A stretch of DNA of 64,000 nt, taken from positions 1 to 64,000 of the forward strand of contig JAUCBJ010007299.1 of the NCBI GenBank assembly GCA_032718475.1. Reading direction: 5' to 3'. Both the position numbers and the translations under genes were made by a program. This DNA comes from Nemertoderma westbladi (Eukaryota; Animalia; Xenacoelomorpha). Of the stretch, positions 3,050-39,245 are shown piece after piece. A model generated the notes under the pieces. The model had not been told where the DNA came from and ran no database searches. It saw only the letters and a program-made list of their open reading frames with translations. The first letter of the stretch is position 1. Each line of letters opens with the position of its first letter.

Positions 3050-3882
3050 TTCGGTAGTTGTAAGTCAAGTGAAGTGAGTGTAAAAGTATCGAGTTTACCG
3101 TATTTGTATAAAACGGTACTAATTACAGTCATATAAAATTAGCCTACCGGCCGATTTTATAGCAGATGGATAAAATTAGCCTAAACGGCCAATTTTACAG
3201 CAAATAAATGTCACGGAATAAGTATATAATAAAATTAGCCTAGCGGCCAATTTTACAACAAATAAATCGGATAACGATATGCGTTATCAAAAGGTAAATT
3301 AAATACAATAATACGGACTAATTCAGCAATGAACAAAGAAATCATACGGAATGCATAAATACTTGAGACAGTGGAACCCACAATAATTTTAACTAATACG
3401 GTAATGCCTAACTTATTTATGCAACTTTTCGAACTCACCCACTCCAATAATTCTCCAGAAAAACAGATTCCCAGATACAAACCGGACGTGAACCTTTCCG
3501 TTTTTAACGTTGCGGACGAAACGCGATTTTCCCAACCAAAGTTGTTGGGTTATCTATCTCCCAAACTTGCTAAACACGGTCTTGCTCCCGTTACAGTCTA
3601 GAAATGAGTTCTGAATCCTGAAAAACAAAAGAGTTAGGTTTTACTTTACGAAATTTTGTACCGGTACAATATGGTATTTAAACCCTTTTAAACACCGGTA
3701 TTCAATTCCAAAATATTTTACACGCGGTTCAAATCAAATTTTATTTCAAAAAATTAGCACTTAGCTAATCAAATATAAATTTTTACCTCAAAATACAAAA
3801 TTTTCAAATAACTTTAGTCCTACCGAACCGTAGTTCAGTAAAACATATTCCTACTAAATTGGAGAGATACGCCTATTCCTAC

Positions 3883-5764
3883 TATCGGAAGAGACGGTAA
3901 CAATACCTGCAATATCCTACTGTAAAGTTTGTAAATCAAATCATAAATCCGACCTTCTCACCAAAACAGTAAACCCCAAGTAAGCGAATATATTGCAGTA
4001 TCGATCTCTTTTAACCGGTGAGGCAGAAAACAGTCTACGAGCAGACAAACTTCGATAAAACAAAATCCCGCGCAGCGAATCCTAAAATCAGGCTGACTCA
4101 CTGACGGACTAAGGGGCTCGTATACTTTGCCGCGGTGTGATTTATATGGTTGGGCAAAGAGACGCTAGCTAGGTACAGAGGCAGATATTTGGAGGTGTCT
4201 AACTAGCGAGCAAAGTGCAGTAAGGACGAAAGTTAATTTTATATATTTTGAGGTGTAAATAATTTCTAACGCGCGTGTGTTAATTCTGAACGGTCAAAAG
4301 CAGTTTTGCTCCTTCACATATATAATTACTGGGTACGGTGTGCATTTTACGAATATTCTAATTTGTAACTTGTAGGTCCAATACTCACGAATGATAAGGT
4401 TCCTTCCCCTCTTGCGTATTTCCAGGACTCAAATTCAGGCATAAGGTTAATACTACGCCCAGAATTCGGCAATTTTAGGTACCAGGTCCCTGATACTAAG
4501 AAGAGATGTGTTAGTTTACTACTGTAGGCGTACGGGTACTAATAGCTATCCTGGCTCCTATCTAGAATTTTAGTCACCCAGGTAGTCCGGGTAACTTCCT
4601 ATTAGGGCGTTGGCGGGACACGGTAGATGTTAGTATATCCCTGATAGCCTCAATTTATTTGCGCCTAGCGTAAACTGCCCTACCGCCTGAACGGTACAAT
4701 CCCAATTCAGGTGAAAACACAGCAACCCCCTAGCCTACAAGTTCTGATGTAACGGACACCGTTGTACGGCAAATAGTCGCACACACACCTGTACTTAGCA
4801 AGAGTTAAGCGTACAGTTTGCTGCACCCTAACCAATGTGTATGCCTTGTACCGGTGTGCCTACGTCCTATCTGCGTACTAGTATCTGCTCTCTCTCCCTC
4901 TCCCCCGTAGGAATATGAAGGTCTACTGCGGTTTTTCCCTGAATCAAGACAGTACAGTCCCTATGATGTAATTTTGGGCTCACAGCGTGTCACTACGTCT
5001 ACCTTTGATCTTTTGGTCTTACACTTAGGTAGCAAGGATCGAACGCTGTCTAACCTTTCAGGCGATGGGCGAATAACGCTAGATGGTATTGCGGGTTGTC
5101 TCTCGTCTACATTCCCGTGATGTTCCCGTTCATTGCTGTGGCCCGATCTCTAGCTGGCCATCCTGTCCCTGAGTTTGTTCACCGTAGTGAAACCATATTA
5201 AAACAGATAGAAAGGCTGAGAGATGTGACTAGTATTTCTGACTTTATTACAAAACATATAATAACTATTATACAATAAACAATGTAATCTGAAATAAGAC
5301 AGAAAGTGAATGATGGAAAATTGAATAACTAATGAACGAATCGCACCTTTATATACTAAATTTGTGCCGCAATCAATCGAGAAAATTCTCGATTGTTCTA
5401 TAGATTCTAACAAGGTTTTAAAGATAGCTATTGGTCCAGCTAATATATAACTTGCACGACATTGGTTACAATCAAATAACTACAGCCTTATTGGTACAGA
5501 CAAATGCAATTAATTTGTAGCGGTTAATTTAAATGAGTTGAAATTCTACACAAAAAATAATTCGCACTTACTAGGATTTGAACTCGATACCTACTATACT
5601 TATAATTTCCAACGCTCTACCAACTGAGCTACTGAACCACTTGACCGATAGATGCATAATAGATAGAACCAATACGAATGAGAACTCAAAGCAATCTTTA
5701 CAAAGTTAATTCGAATAAAATAAATTTTTGAAAATCCACGGCATTTAGGGAATATAATTCTATA
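3883..5764 (-). repeat. 5' LTR of element A (1882 bp, TATAGAA...CCGATA)
   Basis: Aligns end to end with the two 1881-bp LTRs of B. Confidence 0.92.
5552..5638 (-). ncRNA. tRNA-like Pol III cassette in the U3 of element A's LTR
   Basis: A box TAGCTCAGTTGG, D-arm GCTC/GAGC, B box GAGTTCAAATCC, followed by T6. Confidence 0.6.
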
Positions 5765-10822: not shown

Positions 10823-12010
10823 TGTTCGCGCTTTCAGACCTTTGGCAGTTTAACCCGCCAAATTAGGATGTCTTCTAGATAATAATTCGCTTTTAGCCTA
10901 TGACAAGTATTTGATTCACTACACTAGTCGAAACCAATCTGTGCGCGATCATTCACCCGCTGGATATACCCGGGAGATTGGGTTCGACGGCTTAATCGTA
11001 TTGCTATGTAGGCCTAATGTATTATTCGACTGACAGTATTATATAATCTCTGACAATATTATTCACCTTCGGGAAATATTAACAGTTCCTTTTGGACGTG
11101 GCGCTCTATCTATATAAACAGAGCTATGACTTAAACTACATGCAACGATATGGCTTAGTTACAATTCACATATATGGCGCATTCTTTAGGAAATGCTTCG
11201 TTATCAGTCTCACTCATACACAATGCTGCACAATACTGCACACTGATCTGCCGATCGTCACTGATTTTAGTCACATATAAAAGGAACACGGACCGAATCA
11301 TGTAGGGTCTATCAAATAACATTAGATTCACTTCAAACCACTTTAACATAAGTCACAATCGTTATATGTAACCTTTCTCTCTTACCTTCGGTATATCAAG
11401 AATATTGGGTTTTCGGGGTTATTTATCGTTATTCCAAATATAATAATTCATCAACCATATTATAAAGAACTGACAGTAAATAGCAGTATAACAATATAAA
11501 AGTATGCACAGGTTGTTTGATTAGGTATGGTATGTTATGAGTTGAGGTATGTTTAGTTCATTAGTGTGATAACGGATATATGTCCTTATAATTAAGCCTA
11601 CTAGTGTAAGACTAAAAACTGAAAACACGGAGGTGCCAAAAGCCGGTTCTTAGGCTCTGGGCAAAACATAACACTGAACTACTGAGTTTCTGTATACACC
11701 TCCAACACAGAGACAACAAACGCTCTGATTGGTCAACCTGAACAACGATAGAACAAAGAAACAAAGAAACGTCGACGTGGCAATATCAGCTGTTAGCCGT
11801 CGTCATGGTAGCGCCACTGTTTTCAAGAGTATCCAGCTATTGCGTCACGAAATTACGGATTATGTCCTTTAAAGTACACATACAGAAGAAATGACTTTTA
11901 TGTCCTCTAAAACACCAGTACAGTAAGGACACGGCCTTTTTATGCCTGGTAAACCAACTACAGAGTACTTTACGGGAAAATAACCGGCTAATTACGCAAA
12001 AGCTTTTACA
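10823..12010 (-). repeat. 3' LTR of element C
   Basis: Direct repeat of 39525-40712; about 4 substitutions seen by eye. Confidence 0.95.
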
Positions 12011-13334: not shown

Positions 13335-13339
13335 GCGTA

Positions 13340-15220
13340 TATAGAATTATATTCTCTAAATGCCGTGGATTTTCAAAATTTTATTTTATTCGAATTAACT
13401 TTGTAAAAGATTGCTTTGAATCCTCATTTGTATTTGTTATATCTATTGTACGCCTATCGGTCAAGTGGTTCAGTAGCTCAGTCGGTAGAGCGTTGGAAAT
13501 TATATGTGTAGTAGGTATTGAGTTCGAATCCTAGTAAGTGCGAATTATTTTTTGTGCAGAATTTCAACTCATTTAAATTAACCGCTACAAATTAATTGCA
13601 TTTGTCTGTACCAATGAGACTGTAGTTATTTGATTGTAACCAATGTCGTGCAAGTTATATATTAGCTGGACCAATAGCTATCTTTAAAACCCTGTTAGAA
13701 CCTATAGAACAATCGAGAATTTTCTCGATTGATTGCAGCACAAATTTGCTATATAAAGGTGCGATTTGTTCATTAGTTACTACTTCTCAGATTATCTTAT
13801 CAATATTCTGTCGTGCTTAGTTTATTTCAGATTACATTGTATTATAATTATATCTTCTGTAATAAAGTCAGAATTATCGCTAATCTGCCTTTTCTATCTG
13901 TTTTACCATGATTCACTACGGTGAACAAACCTAAGGGACAGGATGGCCAGCTAGAGATCGGGCCGCAGCAATGAACGGGAACATCGGGGGAATGTAGACC
14001 AGAGACAACCCGCAATACCATCTTGAGTTATTCGCCCATCGCCTAAAAGGTTAGACAGCGTTTGACGCCTTGCTACCCAAGTGTAAGACCGAAGATCATA
14101 AGGTAGAAGTAGTGACACGCTGTGAGCCTAAAATTACATCTTAGGGACTGTACTGTCTTGATTCAGGAAAAACCACAGTAGACCTTCATATTCCTACGGG
14201 TAGAGGGAAAGAGCAGGCAGATACTAGTACGCAGATAGGACGTAGGCACACTGGTACGAAGCATACAAATTGGTAGGGTGCAGCAAACTGTACGCCTAAC
14301 TCTTGCTAAGTACAGGTGTGTGTGCGACTATTTGTAGTACGACAGTGTCCATTGCATTAGAACTTGTAGGCTAGGGGGTTGCTGTGTTTTCACCTGAATT
14401 GGGATTGTACCGTTCAGGCGGTAGGGCAGTTTACAGCTAGGCGCAAATAAATTGAGGCTATTAGGGATACTAACATCTACCGTGTCCCCGCCAACGCCCT
14501 AATAGGAAGTTACCCGGACTACCTGGGTGACTAAAATTCTAGATAGGAGCCAGGATAGCTATTAGTAACTGTACGCCTACAGTAGTAAACTAACACATCT
14601 CTTCTTAGTATCAGGGACCTGGTACCTAAAATTGCCGAATTCTGGGCGTAGCATTAACCTTATGCCTGAATTTGAGTCCTGGAAATACGCAAGAGGGGAA
14701 GGAACCTTATCATTCGTGAGTATTGGACCTACAAGTTACAAAATTAGAATATTCGTAAAATGCACACCGTACCCAGTAATTATATATGTGAAGGAGCAAA
14801 ACTGTTTTTGACCGTTCAGAATTAACACACGCGCGTTAGAAATTATTTACACCTCAAAATATATAAAATTAACTTTTGTCCTTACTGTGTTTTGCCGCTA
14901 GTTAGACATTTCCAAATCTCTGCCTGTACCTAGCTAGCGTCTCTTTCGCCCAACCATATAAATCACACCGCGGCAAAGTATACGAGCCCCTTAGTCCGTC
15001 AGTGAGTCAGCCTGATTTTAGGATTCGCTGCGCGGGATTTTGTTTTATCGAAGTTTGTCTGCTCGTAGACTGTTTTCTGCCTCACCGGTTATAAGAGATC
15101 GATACTGCAATATATTCGCTTACTTAGAGTTTACTGTTTTGGTGAGAAGGTCGGATTTATGATTTGATTTACAAACTTTACAGTAAGATATTGCAGGTAT
15201 TGTTACCGTCTCTTCATATA
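13340..15220 (+). repeat. 5' LTR of element B
   Basis: Near-identical to 29265-31145. CCAAT boxes at about 13610-13675, TATATAAA at 13750-13757, AATAAA at 13861-13866. Confidence 0.96.
13467..13553 (+). ncRNA. tRNA-like Pol III cassette in the 5' LTR of B
   Basis: A box TAGCTCAGTCGG (13474-13485), D-arm GCTC/GAGC, B box GAGTTCGAATCC (13520-13531), T6 (13548-13553). Acceptor and anticodon stems do not pair. Confidence 0.6.
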
Positions 15221-15231
15221 GTAGGAATATG
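15221..15231 (+). promoter_or_regulatory. Non-tRNA primer-binding site of B (GTAGGAATATG)
   Basis: Abuts the LTR, has no TGG, and is the exact complement of LTR-internal CATATTCCTAC (14187-14197). Confidence 0.75.
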
Positions 15232-16020
15232 TTTTACTGAACTACGGTTCGGTAGGACTAAAGTTATTTGAAAATTTTGTATTTTGAGGTAAAAGTTTGT
15301 ATTTGATTAGCTAAGTGCTAATTTTTGAAATAAAATTTGGTTTGAACCGCGTGTAAAATATTTTGGAATTGAATACCGGTGTTTAAAAGGGTTTAAATAC
15401 CATATTGTACCGGTACAAAATTTTTCGTAAAAGTAAAACCTAACTCTTTTGTTTTTTCAGGATTCAGAACTCATTTCTAGACTGTAACGGGAGCAAGACC
15501 GTGTTTAGCAAGTTTGGGAGATAGATAACTCAACAACTTTGGTTGGGAAAATCGCGCTTCGTCCGCAACGTTAAAAACGGAAAGGTTCACGTCCGGTTTG
15601 TATCTGGGAATCTGTTTTTCTGGAGAATTATTGGAGTGGGTGAGTTCGAAAAGTTGCATAAATAAGTTAGGCATTACCGTATTAGTAAAAATTATTGTGG
15701 GTTCCACTGTCTCAAGTATTTATGCATTCCGTATGATTTCTTTGTTCATTGCTGAATTAGTCCGTATTATTGTATTTAATTTACCTTTTGATAACGCATA
15801 TCGTTATCCGATTTAAAATTGGCCGCTAGGCTAATTTTATTATATACTTATTCCGTGACATTTATTTGCTGTAAAATTGGCCGTTTAGGCTAATTTTATC
15901 CATCTGCTATAAAATCGGCCGGTAGGCTAATTTTATATGACTGTAATTAGTACCGTTTAGATATAAATACGGTAAACTCGATACTTTGACACTCACTTTA
16001 CTTGACTTACAACTACCGAA

Positions 16021-18300
16021 ATGAGTGACAAACAAGACTATACGAAGAACACACCTACCGACTATGACTCGTGTGACGCGGATAAGTCAGCAGCGGAAGA
16101 ACAACAGGGGAAGACTCGCGAGCCTACCGAACCTACACCGTGTGCGTCACCAGTACATCCAACGGGAGTACCGGATGCCGTAGTACGAGGCGACGGCAGG
16201 ACCGAGGACTTTCTAACTGTTCCGCAACCTAGATACAGGGAAACGGAGATGGTAAGTTCAGTAGGAAGCCAGGAGAGCGTAGTTAGAAGCGTCGGCGGTT
16301 ACATGGCGCATATTACCAGGAGTATTGGAGAAGGCCAACGCATATTAGACGAGTTAACCGCTCCGATGTCTCGGTTCGAGTTCTACACTCTACAGGTGAG
16401 AGTACAGAGTAAAGTATATAAGTCCGTAGATAACCTAATTGGTCTACAAGATCTAGCTAGACAGAGACAGGATATGGACACTCAGCTTAGAATCCTCGAG
16501 AAACTAATGATCACTAGAGAGAAACTGATTCAGTTTAAGTCGACGATTAGGCAGATACAACAGGAACAAGCGGACCAGTTGTTAGGTGAGTCAGTTTCGG
16601 ACGAATTATTGCAACCCGAGGAAGAACAGGAACTGTACAGGCTAGATGGACAATTGAAACACCTGACGGATCACTTACGCATGTGCGGCGAGGACGTCGG
16701 AGATTGGGAAACCGTGCCGGAGGCTACGAGGGAAACTTCACTCGCACAAATCGAACTGGCACCGGGAACACTAAATCAATCACTGGTGAGTATTCGCAGC
16801 GAAATTGGCGAGGTGAGTATGGCTACGTCAGAAATTGCTCGACAACAGCAGCTCTACAGACAACAACAGGAGATGGAGGAACAAACTGAACTGCTAATGG
16901 CACAAGCAGCAGTACAAGAAGAGAAACTACGTGTTGCGAATGTTGCAAGAATCTCTCATCTGCAAGAACAAGCCGAGTTGGAAGCAGCCGAGATGGAAAG
17001 ATTAGAGTTGGACATTGCACAACAGGCAGCGGCAGCGGCAGCGGCAGCGTCCGAGTTAGAGCGACAAAGGTTAGCTTCAGAAGCGAGAACCGAAATGAAA
17101 AAACGGCAAATAAAGGCTCAATCAGCTATACGACAAGCGGAGTTCGAGGCGCAACAACAACAGACGGAACAACGCGAGAAGGAAGTTAAACTTCATTTCG
17201 AACTCGGGAAGAAGGCGAGAGAATTAGCCAACGCGAAGGAAGATCTGGATCTACAAGCCCGCGATCGATCGATGAGATCTCGTGACGGACATGATTTGGA
17301 CCAGTTAGAGGTAAGGCACCGTCAAATTCAGGAACGAATGAAGGAAGGAAGTGTAGGGGCACCTGGGCGAGAAAGACAACTAGTAAAGGACTTATGTCAA
17401 AGATTCCCTCAAGTAACTCCTATGTTTGCACCGGTTACGACTAAGGAACCTGTTTCGATTGCTGGTAGTAGTAATATTTCTCCTATCCATGGTGCGACGG
17501 AACACAGGTTTGTTATTCCGGACAAGTTTACACCGCCAAGAGCAACGTCATCGCCTATTCCGAAAGTCAAGGTAAGTAACCCGCCGATTACAGATCGTAG
17601 TAGTTTATTAGTCGAACCTGTATTACTGACGACTAAACAGGTGAGTCCACCGTCGACACCTAAACCCGTTACACACTACGCTTACCCAATGACGTTTAGG
17701 CCTTCAAGGCCTTTAGATTCAAACGCTGTCACTCGACCACCGGTTCAGTTTACATCGCAATCTACGACTTCGAGGAAGACTTGTGAGCCTACCGAGCAAC
17801 GGAGACCAGTGGATACGCGACCGTTTAATCAGTTTACATCGCAATCTACGACTTCGAGGAAGACTTGTGAGCCTACCGAGCAACGGAGACCAGTGGATAC
17901 GCGACCGTTTAATCAGTTTACATCGCAATCTACGACTTCGAGGAAGACTTGTGAGCCTACCGAACAACGGAGACCAGTGGATACGCGACCGTTCAACCGG
18001 TTTACATCGCAATCTACGACTTCGAGGAAGACTTGTGAGCCTACCGAACAACGGAGATCAGTGGACGATGTTCCGAAACGAAACGTGAGAATTCGTACGA
18101 CGCAACGGACGCGAACACGTCGACCACCATATCCAGATGATAGTAGTACTTCGAGCGAATCGGATTACCCGAAACGCGAGGTATTTAGAACAGGGGCGGC
18201 CGATGAATACAAACGCGAGCATTCAGACAACTCCTTTGCAGACAATCCTCCACAGAATACACCAACACAGAAGGCGTTACAACCAACGGACGCAATCAGT
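16021..18300 (+). CDS. Gag-Pol of B, exon 1 (760 codons; long coiled-coil/low-complexity N-terminal extension)
   Basis: ORF 16021-18306; its last codon and TAA stop come from the insertion. Homologous to the uninterrupted ORF of A. Confidence 0.9.
17742..18066 (+). repeat. 84-bp (28-aa) coding tandem repeat in gag, about 3.8 copies (about 2.8 in A)
   Basis: FTSQSTTSRKTCEPTEQRRPVDTRPFNQ repeated. Confidence 0.95.
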
Positions 18301-19523
18301 ACCTAAAGAGGTGAGGTCTCTATAAGGGTGCTGATAGCAGGCGGCGGCGGACTCGTGAGGGTCTGGGGACACGTTAAAACCTGCGTCCGTAAGTGCAAGG
18401 GAGATACTTAAGGCCCTCGTGTCTAACGAACCATGAATTGTCATGGTGCCGTGGTACCGTCTAGTCGGCCTGTTGCCGTACTGCCAGTCCTGTACACAGT
18501 AGGGGTGGTGGCATGGTGTGATTTGTGGTTCATGTGGCGTGAACTATGTTTTGTATGTGGGCGATCAGTGGCAGTTTGCTTGGGGCTTGGATGGTTCCAT
18601 TGGCCATCAGCTGTTCCGTTTTTTTGATACTATATGTTATTGTCTCCATGTTCAGCTGATTGGTCTTTGGTGGCATTGGAATAAACTGTCGGGTCTTGAG
18701 CTTTCTGTTGCTGTGGGTACGTGAGTACACGTGATTGTATGTGTGGCCACTGCGAGTGGGTATGGGAACCCTTGCCAGTTGGACAAGACGCCGCTGGTAT
18801 TAGTAGGACCATACTTTACTGCGCCCCAGCATACTTTGTGCACACAAAGTTATTTTACCCTGTCGGTAAAATAAGGTACTCTCGATTTTGCCGTTTGTCG
18901 ATACAATTTTGTCCCCTCTGATTTTGTCTTTCTCGATTTTGACCCCGATTTTGTCTTTACCCGATTATGTCCTCTGTGTGTGCATGGTATGTGTCAGATT
19001 TTGTGTTTACCGTAGTGTACTTGATTTCGTGAACATCTGTTGAGTACACGTGTACAGGACGGGTAAGTGGTTACTTGTTCCTAGCTTTCGAGCTAGTCAG
19101 TATTGTTGAGGAACGGTGTCCCCTCAATACTGCCGGCGAGGCAGGTGAAAACGTGTCAAAATTCCATGTTGGGTAGCGCAAGCCCACATGGGACAAGACC
19201 GTCGGTTAGGCCCAAGGGCGACCTTGGTGCTCGATCGCTATCGACTGGTCCACCTGCCGGTTGACTCTTTGTTATACTTGGAGTTGGCTCAATGTACAGT
19301 CAGGCCACAGTAAGTTGACAGTAGCCGCCCATCTGGCTACACGTTCGACGAGCTGTGCTGGTGTGATCGGGGGACCGAAAACAGAACCCGGGAAGCATCA
19401 GGCCACCCTCCGGCCCGGTCTGATAATAACATCAGTCGGACTGGCCCCAGAGGTGGTGGAACCACGTCCGCCTCGTGGGTGCGCCTCGGAGTTATCGGAG
19501 AGGAGCCCAAAAGGACGAAAGTG
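18301..19523 (+). ncRNA. Group I self-splicing intron (1223 nt) in the gag of element B
   Basis: Follows exon T18300 and ends in G19523. P1 18292-18300/18330-18338 with U.G. P3 19140-47/19251-58. P4 19151-57/19197-202. P5 19162-68/19187-93. P6 19203-07/19233-37. P7 19241-47/19297-302. P8 19259-67/19281-89. J8/7 CAATGTA. Absent from A; excision is in frame. Confidence 0.88.
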
Positions 19524-22500
19524 ACACAACAGTTCGCCGACATCATGCGACCAGTTGTTAACAAGTTGGCTCAGATCGAGGAGCGTCCGGAGGAAGTTCA
19601 AACCGATAGTTCGAGGAACACTGAATTCGAACACAATAGACACCCGAAGGAACCACAAAGACCGGTACCTTCAAAACACCCATCGTATCAGGGAAAAGCG
19701 CCAAGAAGGGATATCAACTAGTGTACCAACCAAGGACGCGAAACTCTGAACGTTGCCGAGGAGATAGCGAAATTCGCAGCCAGACAGGGATTGCCGGTGC
19801 AACAACCACCGAAGTTTTCTGGTAGCTCAAAACACTGGCACACTTTCGTAGACTATATCGAATCTCAGATCGCCGTGTGCGCCTTTACATCACGGGAGAA
19901 GTTTAATTACCTGCTTCAAACGTTGTCAGGAGAACCTAAACGTTTGGCAGAGACCTTCGTTGGTGTACCGGACGCCTTCGAATTAGTGTACGATCGTTTA
20001 ACTTCGATATATGGAGGTACAGTCAGTATGGCCAGGTCAGTAATAGAGGAACTCTGTAAGGGAGGGGCTATCACTAAACCCGTCGACTTATTAAAACTGG
20101 CCGACGAGATAAAGAACGCTATCACTACTTTAAGATCCATTGGACAACTTGACTACGGGAATACCCCTACAGTCCTATTAAAGATCATAGGACGACTCCA
20201 CCATCGACTTCGTCGGGAGTGGAGAAAGATCGAATACCAGCGAGAAGAGCGGGGTGGATTCTTAAAACTAGAGGATGTGTACCTTTTGATATCCAGGGAA
20301 GCAGTTGTAGAAACTCGATCCAACTACACTGACCAGCACATCGTAGCAGAAGGGATCACCTTGCCATCCTCCAACCGACAAAAACCTCAGACAACATCCA
20401 CCAAGACGGCCACATACGCCACATCGACGGAAACCCGACAATTCTCGGACGGTAGTAGAGTATCTGCGCCCATTGGGACAAAACAGACGAGACAACAACT
20501 CAGTACCGACTTCAGCGGCTGCCAATACTGCGAGCATTTGGGCAAGCGGTATATCGGTCACAAGTTGAGAGGTTGTCGACAGTTTCGCGAGTTAAACTCG
20601 GAAGAACGACGGCTGCAGATACGGCCATTGGACTCTTGTTGGCGGTGTACGCGACACGGACACGTCCGTAAAGATTGCCCAAATACCGACACTTGTCCAT
20701 CCTGTGGACGCAACCACAACGGTCTGCTCCACACAGACAGCCACACACCGACAAAACGCTTCGCCAGGGAACACCCGGAAGCAGCAGCGAGATGTGATGC
20801 GGCCTACAGAAAACGAGAATCGAAAACGACTCCGACCTTCGTGACCCATATTGAGGATTGCTTCTCTGAACAACCCGGATCGTCGGACGAAGAGTCAGAA
20901 GACGACGACGTATATTCGGATGGAGATGAACAGCCATCGATCGCGCTTCTGACTACTGACCAACTGAAGGGATTCAGTGTAATTCCGATTAAGATTACTG
21001 GCACAAAGGGGAGTAAGAGAATCTACGCTATTCTAGATTCAGCCTCTTCTCACAGTTACGTGGATGAAAAGATAGCTGACGTCGTGACGGATCTCAGACA
21101 AGGTAAGCGCGTCAGTTATACCGTAAGTAGTATGCACGGACAGCGTGCAATACCAGTGACACGAGTCAAGTTAAACTTAGACTCTCTTCTTCCGAAATCG
21201 CAACACAGCGAGAGGGAGAGGTCTTTGTTACCCTTCAAGGATTTGACCTTTGCGGCCACCAAAGACTTTAGTAACTTACTAGGTCCGGTCCCAGAACAAT
21301 CCTTGAAGGACCGTAAGTATTTCAGACACCTTGGTGTACTCGAATGTCCTGTCAATTATAGATCGGTAGCCATGCTGATCGGGACAGACCAATTCAACCT
21401 ACACCAAGTGTGGGAAACCAGACCATCGGCAGTCGTAGCGGGAAACGCATACGCCTGTAGAACGCCGATAGTGTGGTATACTCGAGCGCCTGTGCGCACA
21501 CTAGACGTAAGTGACGAGGAAGACGATGTACAAAGTACATGTAGTTTATTAACTACAAATTCAATTCATTCCTTCTCACACGACGTGAACCATACTACAC
21601 TACAGTCGACAAAACGTGACAGACGTGTGACTAGTATGATAAGTCACAAGGAGCAGCTAATCCACCAGCGGAGTTTAGAACTTGGGGAGAAGACGAGTCA
21701 GCTAGAGATTCCATCGATGACAGATGATAACGCCGGAAGGCTTGCGAGTCTACCTACCCCAACGACATCAACAATGCACGTCGATATCGATGATGACGCG
21801 TTGAGAAATCATCAAATGGAACAAGCTGCACTGGACAAAGAATTAACGGAGAAGACTATCAGGTGGTTAGAACAAGATACAGCTGAACCTGGTAGCTATG
21901 AACCTTGTATGTCAGAACAGGAGAAACAATCTCTGAAGATCATGGAAGATACTATCCGCCAGACGGAGGACGGACATTATGAGGTAGGGATGTTATGGCG
22001 TAGCCAAAGTCCTAAACTCATAAATAACTACCCACTGGCTTTAAGACGTCTACACTCAATCCGACAGCGTCTATTAAAGGACGAGAAAGCCCATCTGCAG
22101 TACAACACTCAGATGGAGACATATTTGACCAAGGGATACGCTATCCGGATGACTAACCCAGAGATAGTGACTGACCAGACGTACTACTTGCCACATCACT
22201 ACGTGAGACACCCCGACAAACCAGACAAAGTACGTGTAGTCAATGACTGTGCGGCTCTGTTTGAGGGAATGTCCCTCAATAGCGAGTTGATGGATGGACC
22301 AAACATGAATAATTATCTTATGGGGGTGATTATGCGCTTCCGTCAGCGTCAAGTAGCTTTTACTTGTGACGTTGAAGCGATGTTTCACCAAGTGAGAGCG
22401 TTAGAGCGAGACAGAGACAGTTTGCGGTTCCTCTGGTACCTGGAAGGAGACTTAAGTCTACCACCGGCGACTTACCAAATGCAAGTTCGCGTTTTCGGTG

Positions 22501-25500
22501 CCAGGGACAGCCCAAACTGCACGATGTACGCCCTAAAACAAGCCGCTAGGGATCAGAAACACCTGTATGACCCAGAGATAATTAGGATTGTGGAGCGTGA
22601 CTTTTACGTTGACGACGGTTTACAGAGTTGCGACACAGTAGAACGTGCTACAACAGTAGCACATCAATTACGGGACTGCTTAGCGGGCGGAGGTTTTAAC
22701 CTCACCAAATTCGCCTCAAACAGTGCCGAATTAGTAGACTCATTCGGAACGACTGAGCGTGGAGGTGGTGACATAGACCTAGAGTTCGAACCACTACCGA
22801 CGACCAAGGTGTTGGGGCTCTTTTGGGACCCAAACACAGACAACTTTCGAGTGAAAGTGAGACTGGACAGTCAAGAAAACACACTGACAAAGAGATCATG
22901 CTTGTCAAAATTGAGCCGATTGTTCGATCCGTTAGGATTCATCAGTCCAGTAATACTGCAAGCCCGCATTTATATGCGCAGTATTTGGAAGGATGGACTG
23001 ACATGGGACGAGCCGATCTCATCAGACCAAGTGGACTTATGGAAGACCTGGGAGGCGGAATTATCTTCGCTAGAGGATTATTCCATACCCAGAGTTTACT
23101 TTCCATTACAAACAACATTCCCTGACAACTTGGAATTACACTGTTTTTCTGACGCCAGTGACAACGGTTTTGGTGTGGCAGCGTACTTGCGCAGACAAGT
23201 AGACTCAGAAGAATTCGACGTTTCGCTCATTACTTCTAAGGCAAAAACAATGCCTACTAAGTATATGACGACACCACGAGCTGAGCTACAAGCCGCAACA
23301 CTGTCAACCACCATCGTGAACCTCATACAGACAGAACTACAGTCAAGTTTACAGATATTTTATTGGACTGACGCGACGTTGGTTTTATTTTACATAAACA
23401 ACGACACACTTGAATTCAAGACATTCGTAGCTAACCGTCGCGCAGAAATTCTAGACCGTTCAATAAAAGAGGATTGGCGACATTGTCCCGGACCACAAAA
23501 CCCAGCTGATATTGCGTCGCGAGGAATGATGCCTGAGGAATTCTGTAAACCGGAAAACAAAGAATTTTGGCAACACGGACCCCAATTCTTGCAGAAATCG
23601 ACGCAAGATTGGCCACCGTTATACGACAACAAGTCTAACACTATCCCTAAGGACGCCGAAATCAAGAAACCAAAAAAGGGGAAGGCAAAGAAAAAGACGA
23701 CGGCGGCAAAACTCAAGAAAAAACCGAAGGCGAAATGGAAAGATATAACTTCAAAGGTCAAGAGAGGAAGACTTGCGAGCCTTTCTACACCAGACATATC
23801 GCCAGACGGTCAACCAGACACGTTACTAGACGGTCAACCGGACGTTTTGCCAGACATGTCACAAAATGTTCTACCAGACACTAGTAACACATTGACAAAT
23901 AGTAAAGCCGCAGTTTCCCTATTGGAGCGGCCTTCTATTGACAAACAACCAGATACGTTACCAGACGTATCGCCAGACACATTACTAGACAGTCGACTAG
24001 ACATTTTGTCAGAAACATCACAAAATGTTCTACCGGACATTAGTAATGTATCGACTAACAGTAAAGCCGCAGTTTCCCTATTGGAGCGGCCTTGTATTGA
24101 CAAACTACCAATTTTGACACACTTGAGCAACCATAAGCACGGTGAAACCTCATGTATTACAGATGTGGGTAGTACCTACGCTAATGTAAATACAGGTGTT
24201 ACTTTGCGCTCAAGAGACATACCGAACTTGCAACCTATGGTGAAACCTGGGATTAATGTCGGCAGAAAAATAAGTTTACCGAAACCCAGTGACCCCATAG
24301 AGTTCAAACCACCATTAACGATCGACTTACAAAGTACTGACAATCAAGGTAAGAAGACGAAGAAGGACAAATTACTTGTAGACCCGGACGGATCAACAGT
24401 CAACAAGGGAATACTTACCGGCGGACCCGTGGGCCCTTCTAGTAAATCAAAACCTTCCAAAATCTCTATTGACTTACCTGATGACGTCACAAATACTCAC
24501 GTAGATCATATTGTAAACCTAACAGATTCTTGGACAAACTCTTGCCGAAAATTAGCGTGGATTGTACGTTTTGTACAATACGTTAAAGGCAAACGCGACT
24601 TTACACGTCGACTTACATTGGCTGAGATTGACAGGTGTGAGATTAAATTAGTTCGCCATTACCAACTGCGATATTTCGCGCGCGAATTCACATCTATAAA
24701 TCAAGGTCAACCAATCAAGTCGTCACCAATACTGAGTTGGAGTCCGATTATTTATAATGGCTTAATTTGTCATAAATCTCGGCTTCAAAACATTGACTTC
24801 AACACAAACTTTAGATACCCAATAATAATACCGCAACATCACGAACTACAACGTGCAATGATACTGGACGCACATTTACATCTGAAACACGCTGGAAGAC
24901 ACCACTGTCTTTCCTACTTACGTACAAGATTTGTATTGATTAGACCTAGTAAAGCATTAAGTTCAGTGACACGTACGTGTATTATTTGTAAAAAGGTACA
25001 CTCTAGAATAGGTACCCAAGAAATGAGTGAACTTCCACAAGCACGACTTCAAGCATTCAGACCACCTTTTACAGAGACTGGAATTGATTGCTTTGGTCCT
25101 ATACATACGAAACGTGGACGTATACTAGTAAAACGCTGGGGACTGATTTTCACATGTATGTCCAGTAGGGCAGTTCATATTGAACGTGTGATGGATCTTT
25201 CCACCAACGCGTTTATACTAGCACTGCGGCGATTTATCGCTAGACGCGGACTAGTGAAATGCTTGTACTCAGACCAAGGGACAAACTTTGTTGGTGCTCG
25301 GAATGAGATTGCTAGAGCCTTTAAGAAATTAGATCATGATCAAATCTCGAACGAACTACAACCTCACAAGATTGTTTGGAAGTTTAATCCTCCAGATAGT
25401 CCTTGGAGAGGCGGAGTCTGGGAGAGACTGATTAGATCTATAAAGACAGCCATGGCAAAGGTCATTCCAGTAAACCACATATTGACAGACGACCAACTGA

Positions 25501-26009
25501 CAACATTGTTTGTTGAAATCGAGGCAATACTAAATACTAGACCAATAGTATTAGTACCCGATGACAAACAATCTCAGTTTGCTTTGACACCGGCACACCT
25601 GCTAATGCAGGCACCGACCACATTGACGCCGATTTCTATTCCAATAGAAAGCGATAGCTACGGTAGAAAAGCGTGGAAAATCACGCAACTACTGGCTAAC
25701 AAATTCTGGGAAATATGGCAAAACCATTATTTGCCCTCTATTTCTGCCAGAACAACTTGGTATAATAACACCCGCGCATTGAAGCCGGGAGATCACGTGC
25801 TATTAGCGGAAGTGAATCTAAAAAGACGCTTCTGGATAACAGGTGTAATTTTAGCCACACATCCATCTATGGATGGAGTGACAAGAACTGTGACGGTACG
25901 GACAATTGACGGTCGTACAGTAGACAGACCGACTCAACGTCTCGTACTTCTTGAAGAGACTCGTAACGAGTCTGGAGACTACAAATCTCCACCTAATACT
26001 AGTAAATAA
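19524..26009 (+). CDS. Gag-Pol of B, exon 2: gag core, three zinc knuckles, protease, RT, RNase H, integrase (one in-frame TAG at 19719-19721)
   Basis: Gag PPKFSG; knuckles CWRCTRHGHVRKDC and CPSCGRNHNGLLH; protease ILDSASSHSY; RT YLPHH and YVDD; RNase H FSDAS, PRAELQAA, NPADIASRG; integrase GIDCFGP, SDQGTNF, GGVWERLI. Confidence 0.95.
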
Positions 26010-26669
26010 TTAGGAGTTTACAAATAGATTTCCACGTACCTGTACACCGTAGTAAGGACAGCGGTAGAATTCCATTGTCTTTATATGTGAACATTGAGGG
26101 TGGTACCCTTATGTGTCACATAGGAGCGGGATTTGTAGGTATAAGAAATGGAATTCTACTTGGAACTCACAATATTGAGACATTTTCGAAATTTTAGACA
26201 ATCCATTTGGATTTGAAAAATTTTTAAAATTTTCTCCAGTGAATAGATTTCAGGGTACTGTCGGGTGGAACTTAAAATTAGAGAAACAAGAGAGGAAGAC
26301 TTGCGAGCCTTTCTTAAAATTTTAATTAAATTTTACACGGTCTTGTTTCAATAAGTTACGTCAAAATAGACTCCCCTATATTTATTACTAATTCTTGACT
26401 GCTTATTTTCTGATAATAGTTTGGGATCAAAAAGTGAGTATTTTAGACTCACAGCCAGTTTAGCCCAAAATTCGTTTTTATTTCGGCAAAAAATTTTAGA
26501 TAAGAAGCAGCGTGTCATTAAAGAAACCCTAGATCTTAGGCTATGGGTAGGAGGTTAGAGCGTTGTCGAGCCCAAAGGGCAGACGAAACTCTCACGTCTC
26601 CTCACAACTAACTACAAACTCTGTTGTATTCCCTCTAGTAGTAATGATTATGTAACTACACCTCTAATT

Positions 26670-28372
26670 ATGGAGAAGGAGATACAAGGAGAGCCGAGAT
26701 GGGGATATGATATCCAAGAGGAGGCAGCAGCGCCATTCGAAAGATTTGGAGCCAAGGACTACACTATATTTGGTATAAAGGAATTATCAGAAAGTACAGC
26801 GAAGCTCGCAAAGACAGTAATGCCTTTACTCGAGCAGGATTTAGTATATTTCGAGACGTGTATCTTTGCTGTGCAGGATCTCTTATCGAAAGACCATCTA
26901 TGTTTACATTGTTACCCTATGAAGGAGAACGTATCGTGGAGATTACGGAAGAATCACGGCAGACGCGCGCGCCTATCGGTCACCTTGGTGATGATTTCGA
27001 AGTAACTACTACGATCGCCGACGATCCTTTAGAGGAACTTCTTGAGATAGAAAGGAACCTCCCGAAGAAATCTCAGACGGAGATTCGACAACTTGAAGCA
27101 ACAGATGCTATAGTTTGTATACAACCTTCAGAAACCTACCAACCCATAGACCCAGATGATTACGATTATAGTGTGGGAGGAAGCGCTCGACCGATTGGAG
27201 ATCTTATATACGAACAAGTGTGGTACCCTGCCAATACGATGTGTAGTAAATGTGGCGTCGCTGGACATCATATGACAAAGTGCAGTGGAAAGCACATTAC
27301 TACGACTCAGCTAATCTGTGGATGGTGTGGGGATCAAGGGTCTCATACCTTTTATACTTGCTGGAGATTTATGGCTCAATGTACTTATTGCAATATAAAA
27401 GGACATCGAGCATCTGAATGCCAACTAAGAGACATACCTTATGAACACGAATCTGTAAAACTCGTGAGGAAGTTATTTGATGAGTGGGAAGATTTAGCCG
27501 ACGAACATGTATCAGCACAAAGAAGACGGTTTCCGATGAGAGCGCATCTCGGATTTTGGGCGGTAAATCCTCAAACGATGATGTCGGAAGGATATATCTC
27601 CGCTATGCCCCAATATGACGAACTTATCGAGGTAGTCGATATTTTGCCCCACGACAGTGGATTCCGAGTGGTGCGCGAGTATCTACTACAGATTCACCCG
27701 GATAACAAAAACACGTGGAATTTTCAGAAAGTCGTTAACCGCATTACGTATGGTGAATTCGATCGTTTCCGAACTGAAAAGCGGAATAAAGGAGCTTGGT
27801 TAACCGTCGCATGGGCGTACCGAGCCGCGTTTTACCATAAACGTATACGAGCGAGCGTATTCGAGGAAGAGGAGGTCCTAGAGGCGACAAATATACCAGC
27901 CACTCCGGTTGCGCCGTCTGCACGTCACCCTCGGGAGGACGGACAGGGTAGGATCATACGGGTCCAGAAAGTGGGCCAACAATTAAAGAAAATTATTAAT
28001 GTAGAAGAACGCAAGGGAGTTGAGCCGACCATTCGAGTTACTCGGGATACGGTATCGCTTCCAAGAGAACCAGTAGGAGGATCGGGACATACACCAGCTG
28101 ATCAACAGGGGGCGCAAGCTACTCTTGGGTCTGCGTCGTCCGCCTTTCGCGCGTTCCCAGACGTTCTACCAACTGTAGTGACAACTGATCGGTCACGAGG
28201 AATCGGTCGAGGTTTTGGGATGCCAAATAGACGAATTTGCGAGGAAATAGTCGCACCGTCTCTCAACGTCCAAACGAAACCAGTGACTCGCCCCACGAGT
28301 CCCATATCGCGAGCAAAGTCACCTGTGCGCAGTTTTCGAGGACGCGGCAGGGCTCGATCAACTAAGCGATAA
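26670..28372 (+). CDS. Accessory ORF downstream of integrase with three CCHC zinc knuckles (two overlapping frames, probably one frameshifted ORF)
   Basis: CSKCGVAGHHMTKC, CGWCGDQGSHTFYTC, CTYCNIKGHRASEC; Arg-rich C-terminus; no evident TM or signal segment. Confidence 0.7.
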
Positions 28373-29264
28373 AAGGGAGGGCAAGGGTGGACGGAAGACT
28401 CGTGAGCCTTTCTTGTGAATTTGTGATTTATTTGAATTTATATTTATATTTGTGTTTATTCCGAACTTAAGCAATTTGTATTGTTCCGAATTTATGAAAT
28501 TTAGAAAGTTTATATTTAGAAGGAACTTATATTTGAAAGATTTATGTTTCATATTTGAGATGCAAAGGAGTTTATATTATTCTAAACTTATGCAGTTTAT
28601 ATTTATATTTAGTAAAGATTTATATTTAGTAAGAATTTACATTTTATATTTGTGATTATTCCGAACTTATGCAATTTATATTGTTCCGAATATTATGCAA
28701 TTTACATTTCATAGGCAGTATTTACAGTGAAACAGAAAGTAAGAGTAGATGGAAGACTCGTGGGCCTTTCTTATAGTTTTATTTGTAAAGTGTTATATTT
28801 TGTATTTAGAAAGTATTATAGTCAGAAAATTTTGTGCTTAGAAAGACTCATATTTGTAATTATTCCAAACTTATGCAATCTACATTTAGGTACGAAAGTA
28901 TTTGTAATTACTTGAATTTATGCAATATTTGAGATGCAATAGTAGATGGAAGACTCGCGAGCCTTTCTTATTGTTTTCATTTATTTGTATTTGTAATTGT
29001 TTGAATTTATGCAATATTGAGATGCAATAGATTTATATTGGTGAATTTAATTTAGATTTATATTGTACTTACTTAGTAAAGCCTTAAATACGTAAAGTTT
29101 GAATTTGTAATTATTTTTGTATCGAATCATTACGTAGAAAGGAAGTATTATTTGAAATTTAATTTGTAAATATGTAAGTACGCCCTAAGTGTTCTATAGT
29201 TTGATTGATTATTGGTGAAAACCGTATATTTTATGCACGATAATATCCTGTTTTCATGGAGCGG

Positions 29265-31145
29265 TATAGAATTATATTCTCTAAATGCCGTGGATTTTCA
29301 AAATTTTATTTTATTCGAATTAACTTTGTAAAAGATTGCTTTGAATCCTCATTTGTATTTGTTATATCTATTGTACGCCTATCGGTCAAGTGGTTCAGTA
29401 GCTCAGTCGGTAGAGCGTTGGAAATTATATGTGTAGTAGGTATTGAGTTCGAATCCTAGTAAGTGCGAATTATTTTTTGTGCAGAATTTCAACTCATTTA
29501 AATTAACCGCTACAAATTAATTGCATTTGTCTGTACCAATGAGACTGTAGTTATTTGATTGTAACCAATGTCGTGCAAGTTATATATTAGCTGGACCAAT
29601 AGCTATCTTTAAAACCCTGTTAGAACCTATAGAACAATCGAGAATTTTCTCGATTGATTGCAGCACAAATTTGCTATATAAAGGTGCGATTTGTTCATTA
29701 GTTACTACTTCTCAGATTATCTTATCAATATTCTGTCGTGCTTAGTTTATTTCAGATTACATTGTATTATAATTATATCTTCTGTAATAAAGTCAGAATT
29801 ATCGCTAATCTGCCTTTTCTATCTGTTTTACCATGATTCACTACGGTGAACAAACCTAAGGGACAGGATGGCCAGCTAGAGATCGGGCCGCAGCAATGAA
29901 CGGGAACATCGGGGGAATGTAGACCAGAGACAACCCGCAATACCATCTTGAGTTATTCGCCCATCGCCTAAAAGGTTAGACAGCGTTTGACGCCTTGCTA
30001 CCCAAGTGTAAGACCAAAGATCATAAGGTAGAAGTAGTGACACGCTGTGAGCCTAAAATTACATCTTAGGGACTGTACTGTCTTGATTCAGGAAAAACCA
30101 CAGTAGACCTTCATATTCCTACGGGTAGAGGGAAAGAGCAGGCAGATACTAGTACGCAGATAGGACGTAGGCACACCGGTACGAAGCATACAAATTGGTA
30201 GGGTGCAGCAAACTGTACGCCTAACTCTTGCTAAGTACAGGTGTGTGTGCGACTATTTGTAGTACGACAGTGTCCATTGCATTAGAACTTGTAGGCTAGG
30301 GGGTTGCTGTGTTTTCACCTGAATTGGGATTGTACCGTTCAGGCGGTAGGGCAGTTTACAGCTAGGCGCAAATAAATTGAGGCTATTAGGGATACTAACA
30401 TCTACCGTGTCCCCGCCAACGCCCTAATAGGAAGTTACCCGGACTACCTGGGTGACTAAAATTCTAGATAGGAGCCAGGATAGCTATTAGTAACTGTACG
30501 CCTACAGTAGTAAACTAACACATCTCTTCTTAGTATCAGGGACCTGGTACCTAAAATTGCCGAATTCTGGGCGTAGCATTAACCTTATGCCTGAATTTGA
30601 GTCCTGGAAATACGCAAGAGGGGAAGGAACCTTATCATTCGTGAGTATTGGACCTACAAGTTACAAAATTAGAATATTCGTAAAATGCACACCGTACCCA
30701 GTAATTATATATGTGAAGGAGCAAAACTGTTTTTGACCGTTCAGAATTAACACACGCGCGTTAGAAATTATTTACACCTCAAAATATATAAAATTAACTT
30801 TTGTCCTTACTGTGTTTTGCCGCTAGTTAGACATCTCCAAATCTCTGCCTGTACCTAGCTAGCGTCTCTTTCGCCCAACCATATAAATCACACCGCGGCA
30901 AAGTATACGAGCCCCTTAGTCCGTCAGTGAGTCAGCCTGATTTTAGGATTCGCTGCGCGGGATTTTGTTTTATCGAAGTTTGTCTGCTCGTAGACTGTTT
31001 TCTGCCTCACCGGTTATAAGAGATCGATACTGCAATATATTCGCTTACTTAGAGTTTACTGTTTTGGTGAGAAGGTCGGATTTATGATTTGATTTACAAA
31101 CTTTACAGTAAGATATTGCAGGTATTGTTACCGTCTCTTCGAATA
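29265..31145 (+). repeat. 3' LTR of element B (includes a tRNA-like cassette at 29392-29478)
   Basis: Direct repeat of 13340-15220; at least 3 internal substitutions plus a 2-nt difference near the end. Confidence 0.96.
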
Positions 31146-32917
31146 GCGTATCAAGCTATCAACAAACGCTTGAAAGTAGAGTATATAGCTCCCTGATACC
31201 AAGACCATCTTCTATCAACTCCGTCATATCTGCTATATATGAGTTTATTAATATTATAATGAGTTTATATTTAGGCTAGCGAGCGTCGCTGCCTACCCCC
31301 ATCAGCCCCTGGACAGTGCGAGATCCTCAGCGCCGATGTGTCGTAGCCGCTGTACTTTCGCCAACGACGTAGCCGCACAACGACAACGACAACCGGCACA
31401 AGTCACTCGACTGTCCGTCCCAAAGGCTTAGATACACCTCAGGTTCTTACTGGAGAGTTAGGGTTACTTTCACAATTGCGACTCGCTACTGTAAACACAC
31501 CTTAGTAGTAACATTCGCCTATAAACTCACAAATACCACACACACAACTTGTCACAAATTACACACACTCGGGCCATTTGTCCGTTAGTCAATGCCTTCC
31601 AGAATGTCACTGTATTATTATGTATCCTTGGATACTAGCAGTGCGCTATTTATTCCCTATGCTATTCAATGGGACAAGCTTTCTATTGTTCTTTTAACTC
31701 AATTCTAATTCTAGCGTGGTTGTTGCTATGGTGACATTATGCAAAGCTAGCGGTAGAATTAGGGTAATTCCAATGCATACAGATCTGGGATGTTATTTAA
31801 TAGTAATTCTTTAATGATCAATGTTCTGTTTTATACATGACTTTATGAATTTTATCGGCTATTGACTATGTTTGGGAGACTTTCGCACACTCATACGCAT
31901 GATAAGATAAATCTCCGCTCCCGTGATCTATTAATTAATGGAATTTTGGGAATGTTATAAATTGCGTAAAAATGGCAATTTATTAAATTCATTAAAAGGC
32001 ATGAATTTAAATTATTCCCTGAAATTTTATTATTTAATAATTAAATGGACATATTTTGATTCTAGAATATGTCTGGGGACACAAGATCCTTAATTCTATG
32101 ACAATTGTCTTTTTAAGAATATCGGTAAATGCTACGATATCTTAATTGACTAGAATTGTTGAAGGATCTGAATTTTACAGATTTTGATTTATTAGATTTG
32201 CAAATATTAAATAATTAATATTTGAGATGGGCACCAATTTATTCCAGAACTTGTCTGGGGACGTTAACCACTGATTCTAAAATTTGTCTTTCAAGTATAT
32301 CGGTGGGTGCCGCGATATCTTAATCGACTAGAATTACAGATGGTCAAAGGGTTTAACAGATTTATTTTGCGTTATACGCTACTGTTAAAGGGACATCACG
32401 CTACTATATGTATTATTTAATATACGGTATGAGAGCAATATCGCACGAAGCAATGTCAGTGTGAAGAGGCAAGTCGTTTCCAAGGTCTACCCAGAGCTTG
32501 GTTTAGCCGAGACACGAGGATCTGAACTTTGCATTCCTAATACTCTGCCTACCAATAATACTTGAATATAGTAGTGGCTTTATTGTACTTTAATAAGTAC
32601 GGACATTTCATCTTACTGTAGTTACGTATTTGTAATGTAATACGGACAGTAATGAAAGAGGAAAAGAATTATTTCTTGCCGTCGCATTAAATATAATATA
32701 TACGTAATTAAGTAATAAACGCGAATATATATTGCACTAATCTACTAAATAATCGCTAAAATAACATTCTACTGAATAAAATTAAAGAAAACGATTATAA
32801 TAAAATTACATAATAATACATACAGAAATATAAAAATAATAAAATAATATAAAATAATAGAGTCACACACCCACTCCATATGTTGTTACGTTATGGAGTC
32901 CCTAGATGTTTGAAGGA

Positions 32918-36997: not shown

Positions 36998-37341
36998 CTT
37001 CGCTCCGCGTTCGGGCGCCCGCTCAACAGTATCCGAACTACTGGAGCTATCGGGCCGTTGAGAAGTAAGTTCTTGGCTCGCGGGTTGTTGCGGTCCGCTG
37101 CTTCTTGGTCCCGCTTGACCTGAGCTCGAGTGCCTATGATAGACCTACGATGTTGGACTAGCCTAGGGTCTGAGATTACTACAGTAGGGATGGCCTTTCT
37201 TACAGCAGGAGGTGACTTAGACTTGGATCTATGATGTTCTATACTTGGATCTGGGTCACTGATCTTTTTAAGACACTGTCTAACAGTCATTCTAACACTA
37301 TCTAGGAGACTATCCGACAGTGATTGGGTTGTGTCAGACAT
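36916..37341 (-). CDS. Probable true N-terminus of C gag (MSDTTQ...), frameshifted relative to the main ORF
   Basis: Overlaps the 1359-aa ORF, starts MSD like the gag of A/B, and has the same base composition. Confidence 0.5.
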   Translation of the reverse strand: MSDTTQSLSDSLLDSVRMTVRQCLKKISDPDPSIEHHRSKSKSPPAVRKAIPTVVISDPRLVQHRRSIIGTRAQVKRDQEAADRNNPRAKNLLLNGPIAPVVRILLSGRPNAERRWWIRFMMSGQPMKNQPTPLLLKKKAK

Positions 37342-38674: not shown

Positions 38675-39245
38675 ATATTACGCTACGCGTACAGACCATT
38701 CAAACAAAATGCAGACCAAATACTGACAGACTACTATCAAGCCTAAACAAACTACGGTATATGCAGACTCCGAAATGATTAGGTAGTATGCGTTCTAACC
38801 CAGTAGTACGACTTGTTCTTTAATTGGGGGTTTACCTTACAGCATTCGCTGCCCCTACTTCCTAACCGTTCTTTATCGGACAAGTGATCTACACACGCTG
38901 CAATCCGTTCAGACCTAATAACAGCCAGACAACTATCCAGCCTACAAATTATCTAAATAAATATTATACGCTACCCGTACAGACTTACACAAACAAAGTA
39001 CAGACTCAACGATGGCAGACTACTCTCAAGCCTAAATAAACTACAGGACATGCAGACTCCGAAATGATTAGGTAGTATGCGTTCTAACCCAGTAGTACGA
39101 CTTATTCTTTAGTTGGGGGTTTACCTTACAGTATTGGCTGCCCCTACTTCCTAACCGTTCTTTATCGGACAGATGATCTACACACACTGCAATCCGTTCA
39201 GACTTAACAACAATCAGACAACAGCTCAGCCTACAAATTGTCTGT
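38675..39245. repeat. About 289-bp tandem duplication in the 5' UTR of C
   Basis: gcagactccgaaatgattaggtagtatgcg occurs at 38763 and 39052. Confidence 0.85.

Follow-up and report, generated by a model that had tools for sequence, protein, structure and literature searches.

The window, meaning the whole 64,000-nt stretch of Nemertoderma westbladi DNA that was analysed, contains nested BEL/Pao LTR retrotransposons. Element B lies inserted inside element C, while element A, a minus-strand relative of B, is cut off by the window start. Their main parts are as follows.

3883-5764 (−): 5' LTR of A, 92% identical to the LTR of B; primer segment at 4907-4917
10823-40712 (−): element C, with target-site duplication (TSD) ACTAC
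10823-12010 (−): 3' LTR of C, 99.6% identical to its 5' LTR
32918-37144 (−): ORF of C, with DUF1759, knuckles and protease
39525-40712 (−): 5' LTR of C, 1188 nt, TG...CA
13340-31145 (+): element B, a BEL/Pao LTR retrotransposon of 17.8 kb
13340-15220 (+): 5' LTR of B, 1881 nt, ends TAT...ATA
16006-18306 (+): ORF1 of B, 766 aa stop to stop, without a Pfam family
19722-26009 (+): polyprotein of B, with DUF1759, Cys-His knuckles, protease DSAS, RT YVDD (22605), RNase H, integrase and DUF5641
26711-28372 (+): extra 3' ORF of B, 553 aa, after pol, with three CCHC knuckles
29245-29264 (+): PPT block of B, ending GGAGCGG, with 17/20 nt the same as in family C
29265-31145 (+): 3' LTR of B, in which the primer segment recurs at 30112-30122

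Element B is a young BEL/Pao LTR retrotransposon, with five mismatches between its 5' and 3' LTR copies and the TSD GCGTA at 13335-13339 and 31146-31150. Along its polyprotein the motifs DSAS (439), YVDD (962), RNase H (1140-1260) and integrase (1720-1900) stand in the order PR-RT-RH-IN. All four acidic motif residues are present in the RNase H, whose region matches PF05380 with an E value of 1.7e-42; an integrase zinc finger and DUF5641 are likewise recognized by Pfam. DUF1759 (PF03564) is found both in B (E 7.8e-11) and in C (E 3.2e-12), and Cys-His knuckles can be read in both translations. The best protein matches of B reach 39-44% identity and carry the same domains. The domains are thus of BEL/Pao and not of Ty3/Gypsy chromovirus type, and Pfam finds no chromodomain in B. 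Nor does the 553-aa 3' ORF have a Pfam match; its Atlas neighbours, all below 0.9, are fungal zinc-knuckle proteins.

The ICTV profile of Belpaoviridae gives an 18-nt PBS for tRNA-Arg or tRNA-Gly, LTR lengths of 0.2-1.2 kb and genome sizes of 4.2-10 kb, and calls the replication of the family poorly understood (PMC8742986). B resembles this family (Semotivirus) in its DUF1759 gag, Cys-His knuckles, PR-RT-RH-IN order, PF05380 and DUF5641 domains, 5-bp TSD and animal host. Unlike the profile, it has an 11-nt self-complementary PBS, its LTR measures 1.88 kb with termini TA...TA, and the whole element is 17.8 kb long. Judged by domains, LTRs and TSD, it belongs to BEL/Pao despite the missing tRNA PBS, because its protein domains place it there, that one trait notwithstanding. 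The gag-protease region of C has 21-29% protein identity to that of B, and neither RT nor integrase was found in this copy; C is probably an amplified non-autonomous family.

The primer-binding sites (PBS) of B and C, and the LTR segments that match them, lie at these positions.

15221-15231 (+): PBS of B, GTAGGAATATG, directly after the LTR, with no spacer and no TGG
14187-14197 (+): primer segment of B, CATATTCCTAC, LTR position 848-858, continuous type
39513-39524 (−): PBS of C, ATAACGGATATA, directly after the LTR, with no TGG
40271-40282 (−): primer segment of C, TATATCCGTTAT, LTR position 431-442

According to the original prediction, the PBS of A/B has no TGG and pairs without mismatch to a stretch of its own LTR (14187-14197 in B, 4907-4917 in A), with pairing that ends at the LTR boundary. 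The letters bear this out: pairing in B stops at G14198/A15220 on one side and at T14186/T15232 on the other. The accompanying estimate of about 5e-4 for a chance match also holds, since at least 11 nt are reached by 12/20000 dinucleotide shuffles of the LTR and by 11/14013 internal pseudo-PBS positions. An additional pairing of CAGTA (14176-14180) with TACTG (15235-15239) had been suggested as well; both motifs are where they were said to be and take the duplex from -13.7 to -19.9 kcal/mol, but a gain of this size is not distinguished from shuffles (p 0.18).

Element C shows the same arrangement in different letters: 12 nt, ending at the LTR edge, a length reached by 5/20000 shuffles and 1/8343 internal positions. 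Two distant families within one window therefore have a common geometry and different PBS letters. A spliced primer was considered for both and rejected, the continuous match being longer than the best spliced one.

To see how far the arrangement extends, we built a profile from the B polyprotein and 37 of the at least 120 homologues listed, and retrieved the best 78 of 548 confirmed metagenome stretches (loci and families are numbered with L below); of 349 pattern matches in viral contigs, none was confirmed. The end of the LTR was set by matching upstream with downstream DNA, which gave 15 families; the relatives have 32-43% RT-RNase H identity. Left out of this number were L039, whose LTR end is undefined by homology, L051 and L037, which belong to the family of L044, and L022, L012, L029 and L063, which duplicate counted families.

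In all 17 elements (15 relatives, B and C), the 10 nt that follow the LTR are free of TGG. Each of the 15 relatives has a PBS with a match of 9-15 nt in its own LTR: four matches are continuous (L027, L057, L072 and L077; 10-12 nt) and 11 run across a GT-AG junction. When PBSs were swapped between elements, at least 9 nt matched in 21/272 foreign pairs as against 17/17 own pairs, and 12 of these 21 fall within the clade L013/L017/L018/L070, which has a common primer core. Per family, 0-4 of 2000 pseudo-PBSs reached the observed score in 15/17 cases. The weaker two are L056 (13/2000), with a match of only 9 nt and a 6-nt spacer, and L050 (62/2000), whose donor is not GTRAG; L051 has one primer mismatch in its 3' LTR copy. 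From the primer to the LTR end there are 1023 nt in A/B and 746 nt in C, compared with 91-247 nt in the relatives.

Compensatory changes in PBS and LTR are seen in the sister families L008/L023, L019/L068, L070/L017 and L015/L052. Co-variation across families had been named beforehand as the test on which the proposal could fail, and it came out in favour. The self-priming suggested for A/B is thereby supported by C and by all 15 relatives, each with its own non-TGG PBS matching its own LTR. In the larger set of 29 elements, the PBS begins with GT in 24, AT in four and AG in one, and is 11-12 nt long in 21; its first 10 nt take 25 distinct forms, which argues against one tRNA half as the primer.

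In the split families, the continuous match covers only 6-9 nt and is immediately preceded by a 3' splice acceptor. If the AG of this acceptor is joined to an upstream GT, exact matches of 9-15 nt result in 11/11, with predicted introns of 71-366 nt. The search demanded GT and AG only, and 10 of the 11 donors read GTRAG (the eleventh, GTACGT), against a background of 43/582 in the pseudo-PBS null and 29/679 GT sites. The 11 acceptors have 7-13 pyrimidines in 14 nt. An earlier control with all 256 dinucleotide pairs ranked GT-AG first (10, next best 7, mean 1.5), yet it is weak, as pairs sharing a common true AG are non-independent, and the donor-consensus null replaced it. Four of the 11 split families form one clade with one primer core and are counted once, leaving about eight independent split lineages.

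A blind scan, in which the LTR end was not given, covered 32 of the 44 remaining loci, the other 12 having less than 900 nt upstream. Split matches of at least 10 nt were found at 14/32 loci, compared with 9/320 shuffles and 0/32 reverse complements; among the 14, L031 and L033 are probably chance and two pairs represent the same family. The continuous class stood at noise level (11/32 versus 61/320 shuffles) and is not counted as evidence. At the 10 loci that were checked (eight split, two continuous), where the 3' end shows the position of the LTR start, the match lies downstream of that start, and the implied LTRs measure 277-966 nt and end in ACA.

For none of the 11 split families was an intron-less copy found, and in L021, L034 and L070 the predicted intron is kept in both LTRs. 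The unspliced form pairs more weakly in 11/11 by duplex energies, and in folds its helix has a mean pairing probability of at most 0.16, again in 11/11. On a tree of 83 RT-RNase H sequences, built with FastTree, rooted at the midpoint and without a clade test, split families are mixed with continuous ones: L077, for instance, is of the continuous type, while the rest of its clade, so far as typed, is mostly split, though the tree gives no direction of change. B sits there on a long branch among marine-invertebrate elements.

In the established scheme of LTR replication, the new PBS is a copy of the primer, made during plus-strand synthesis. A PBS consequently records its primer, and for the same reason the two change together. 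The complementarity, its co-variation, the missing TGG and the intact RT/RNase H of B are direct observations, from which we now propose a priming pathway for A/B and C. The RNA would start at or upstream of the primer segment, and this segment would pair with the PBS across a loop of R and U5. The RNase H of the element would cleave immediately 3' of the duplex, at 14197/14198 in B, leaving a 3'-OH that ends in A-C or A-U; strong-stop DNA would copy U5 up to the cut and then jump to the 3' R. Plus-strand synthesis would finally copy the primer and so regenerate the PBS.

In most relatives, the segment appears to be split by a predicted spliceosomal intron, and only the spliced 5' end would pair fully: a PBS that equals an exon-exon junction would point to the spliced RNA as primer. 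The 3' LTR copy would stay unspliced and pass the predicted intron on. As the cut strips the junction from the template, the intron would be inheritable only via this unspliced 3' LTR, whose weaker pairing would also keep the 3' copy from competing. A/B and C would represent the intron-less form.

We estimate the probability of cis self-priming with an RNase H cut in A/B and C at roughly 0.78; that these elements prime themselves in some form is, on the same sequence evidence, highly probable. Among the points that speak against the cis model, B has a strong CCAAT-TATA module at a distance of 437 nt before the primer, together with a conserved upstream AATAAA, and the model gives no account of what would halt plus-strand synthesis on a long primer. 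On the same side count the loss of the helix in folds with long 5' ends, the lack of a poly(A) signal in the LTR of C and the weaker cases L051 and L056. With less assurance, though still on balance, we favour a wider reading. A broad animal lineage of BEL/Pao may have dropped tRNA priming for a primer cut out of an internal stretch of its own RNA. The host spliceosome would, in most families, assemble this primer in the 5' LTR only, licensing reverse transcription and preventing competition by the 3' LTR copy. Forms without the intron, among them A/B and C, would have arisen repeatedly, and A/B would prime across a 1-kb loop.

Where the RNA begins and ends bears on the choice between forms of self-priming. 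The relevant signals in the LTR of B are these.

13611-13782 (+): promoter-like module, with CCAAT at 13611, 13640 and 13671 and TATATAAA at 13750
13861-13866 (+): upstream AATAAA, kept in A within a block 68-70% identical
14446-14451 (+): downstream AATAAA, 248 nt 3' of the primer

Both the TATA motif at 13750 and the TCATATT overlapping the primer segment, pointed out in the original prediction, are present and conserved in A. From the former, transcription of B would be expected to start at about 13775-13782. If priming occurs in cis, the upstream AATAAA cannot end the genomic RNA, and a poly(A) site is needed downstream of the cut, for which the signal at 14446 is the candidate. AATAAA or ATTAAA occurs 13-127 nt downstream of the primer in 13/15 relatives; the LTR of C contains neither. 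For B this leaves three options: a second start near the primer, read-through of the first AATAAA, or priming in trans.

The first option corresponds to strict Tf1 geometry in A/B and C, a sub-case of self-priming in which the RNA starts at the primer (14187/14188 in B), the primer is its first 10-12 nt and the TATA module drives a separate RNA pool. TCATATT fits an initiator pattern, and pairing lengths cluster at 11-12 nt. Folding points the same way: the helix appears in the minimum free energy structure only with 5' ends near the primer. When leaders are folded from the primer start, its mean pairing probability is at least 0.59 in 13/17 (0.99 in B) and it is weak or absent in the other four; shuffled B primers give 0-6 pairs and less stable folds in 8/8. 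In longer RNAs the helix is lost, for B from 4/4 starts at 13340-14000 and for C from 5/5 starts up to LTR position 421. Such folds from the primer start favour end-to-end pairing and are weak evidence.

Promoter motifs and folding point different ways as to whether the primer is the 5' end of the RNA. A TATATAA stands at -31 from the primer in L008, as a start at the primer would have it, whereas the TATA boxes of L072, L077 and L070 lie at -64, -124 and -135. Separate RNA pools have a precedent in BARE, which has two LTR promoters with distinct RNA pools according to the accessible text of PMC3735527. Split relatives, on the other hand, would need a first exon of 4-10 nt, this being all that pairs on the first-exon side. 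On the 5' side of the core, additional pairing shows a weak enrichment (p 0.0009 when 29 non-independent elements are combined; p <=0.05 in 4/29). Since TATA boxes lie 64-437 nt upstream in L072, L077, L070 and B, first-exon pairing is short and extra upstream pairing is weak, we lean towards an internal primer over a 5'-terminal one of the Tf1 kind, and consider strict Tf1 geometry rather unlikely, if the most credible of the alternatives.

Priming in trans is less probable again. Here, a segment cut from a co-packaged second RNA would prime an intact partner, and R could be the block from TATA to AATAAA at ~13780-13885, which would reconcile the conserved TATA and upstream AATAAA of B with the position of its primer. 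An intact spliced template, though, would hand an intron-less junction to the progeny, contrary to what is seen in 11/11 families, and in 13/15 relatives the poly(A) signals lie on the wrong side of the primer for this scheme, that is downstream.

Slightly less plausible still is a helix with a structural role, in packaging, dimerisation or translation control, priming being left to a protein or to a host RNA such as a tRNA fragment. The priming by tRNA-Arg or tRNA-Gly that ICTV gives for the family would agree with it (PMC8742986). The diversity of PBS 10-mers and the absence of TGG described above do not, and a structural helix would have no reason to begin 0-6 nt from the LTR edge with GT or AT, as a primer end must. 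Chance complementarity in a long LTR, which at 1881 nt yields 11-nt matches at ~6e-4 per test in a scan of many tests, is refuted by the co-variation and by recurrence with different letters in C (2.5e-4) and 15/15 relatives, and has next to no probability.

Cis self-priming, our preferred reading, has its closest counterpart in Tf1, whose first 11 bases pair with the PBS and whose RNase H cuts between bases 11 and 12 (PMC7175516 and PMC4600332, in their accessible parts). The available portion of PMC11042837 adds that about half of Tf1 cDNA retains the copied PBS at its 3' end. According to the sections available of PMC6317226 and PMC4600332, Tf1/sushi and Tcn1 are reported to prime themselves, and for TAR copia this has been predicted. 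Like the chromoviruses Tf1/Tf2 of S. pombe, Tj1 of S. japonicus, Tf1/sushi and Tcn1, the elements studied here have a PBS of about 11 nt complementary to their own LTR and probably use no tRNA. They differ from that Ty3/Gypsy group in superfamily, in a primer that is probably internal and in most relatives split by a predicted intron, in a spacer of 0-6 nt and in a primer-to-PBS loop of up to 1 kb.

The TAR lineage of Ty1/copia (Houba, Osr-1) has been called self-priming on a sequence rule, at least 10 nt of LTR complement starting 0-5 nt after the 5' LTR, as given in the accessible text of PMC6317226. B (11 nt) and C (12 nt), both at offset 0, conform to this rule. TAR elements, unlike B and C, are plant copia elements, and that text, as far as available, makes no mention of a split primer. 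Discussion of PBS or priming was not found in the available parts of the BEL/Pao surveys PMC554778, PMC2774666, PMC3118150 and PMC6238403, or in those of PMC9094657 and PMC12440569. A self-priming BEL/Pao element or a splice-built primer was likewise not found in the largely open-access literature that was searched.

If the proposal is correct, self-priming would extend to a third superfamily, after Gypsy chromoviruses and, by prediction, one copia lineage, and would be common in BEL/Pao elements of marine invertebrates. With a splice-built primer, the initiation of reverse transcription would be linked to the host spliceosome. The failure of PBS finders on these BEL/Pao elements would also be explained, and annotation should seek a complement of the element's own LTR, with or without an intron. 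The result bears, too, on whether hairpin priming preceded tRNA priming in LTR evolution, a question raised in the accessible part of PMC3601003.

Several observations concern the ends of the LTRs. Both A and B have termini TAT...ATA instead of TG...CA (13340-13343 and 15217-15220 in B; 5764 and 3883 in A), and the TSD of B is a clean 5-bp one; the relatives L021 and L057 have TG...TA. The two LTRs of B also differ at the neighbouring positions 15216-15217, 4-5 nt from the end; as a result the 5' LTR closes with CTTCATAT, eight letters that also stand at 14184-14191, running into the primer segment. In L018, L013, L021, L034, L070, L057 and L077, a hairpin is predicted in the last 30 nt of the LTR, before the PBS; it resembles the U5 stem-loop that has been named for Tf1. 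The first five letters of the PBS of C, ATAAC, are those with which the Tf1 PBS starts according to PMC11042837, perhaps by chance.

In element A, the junction at 3844-3882 (−) consists of a 9-nt partial PBS plus 19 nt (3855-3882), followed by the full PBS (3844-3854); it has a 17-nt core flanked by an 11-nt direct repeat. The extra nucleotides may stem from a slip at plus-strand transfer or be a repair scar. That the 19 nt copy a spliced 5' primer extension was considered and set aside, no source for them being found in the window. Between ORF1 and the polyprotein ORF of B, about 1.2 kb (18300-19527) is absent from A, and the gag region of B is split there.

The U3 of B contains a tRNA-like A box (13474-13485), a B box (13520-13531) and a T run, together spanning 13474-13553 (+), with the primer lying outside. 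Also present in the 3' LTR and in A, they could serve as a Pol III promoter, or as a TFIIIC insulator, that travels with the LTR. Neither ARAGORN nor Rfam had any match in the window, and at a relaxed threshold the LTR of B gave only one chance match, so that neither a ribozyme nor an element-encoded tRNA primer is supported.

B also has a strong GTGAGT donor in U5 and an acceptor in the leader (15002 and 15460), and C a strong GTAAGA donor in U5, at LTR position 626. Such U5 donors, with the leader acceptor of B, could splice the PBS out of the mRNA, separating translated from replicated RNA. Run X1, which is DNA-contig-like, has holes over the primer and PBS of B and no GT-AG joints, and is uninformative on splicing or expression. 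It holds many variant contigs of C (31151-39524), 537 against 14 for the LTR region of B.

Outside the elements, the TBCCD1 gene (59440-61155) is one uninterrupted frame of 571 aa, with 35-45% identity to the at least 120 matches listed; the named sources are vertebrates and one sea star, and there is no close relative among them. It adjoins a 21-nt tandem array at 61264-63662, and a second array, with a 69-nt unit, lies at 46410-47375.
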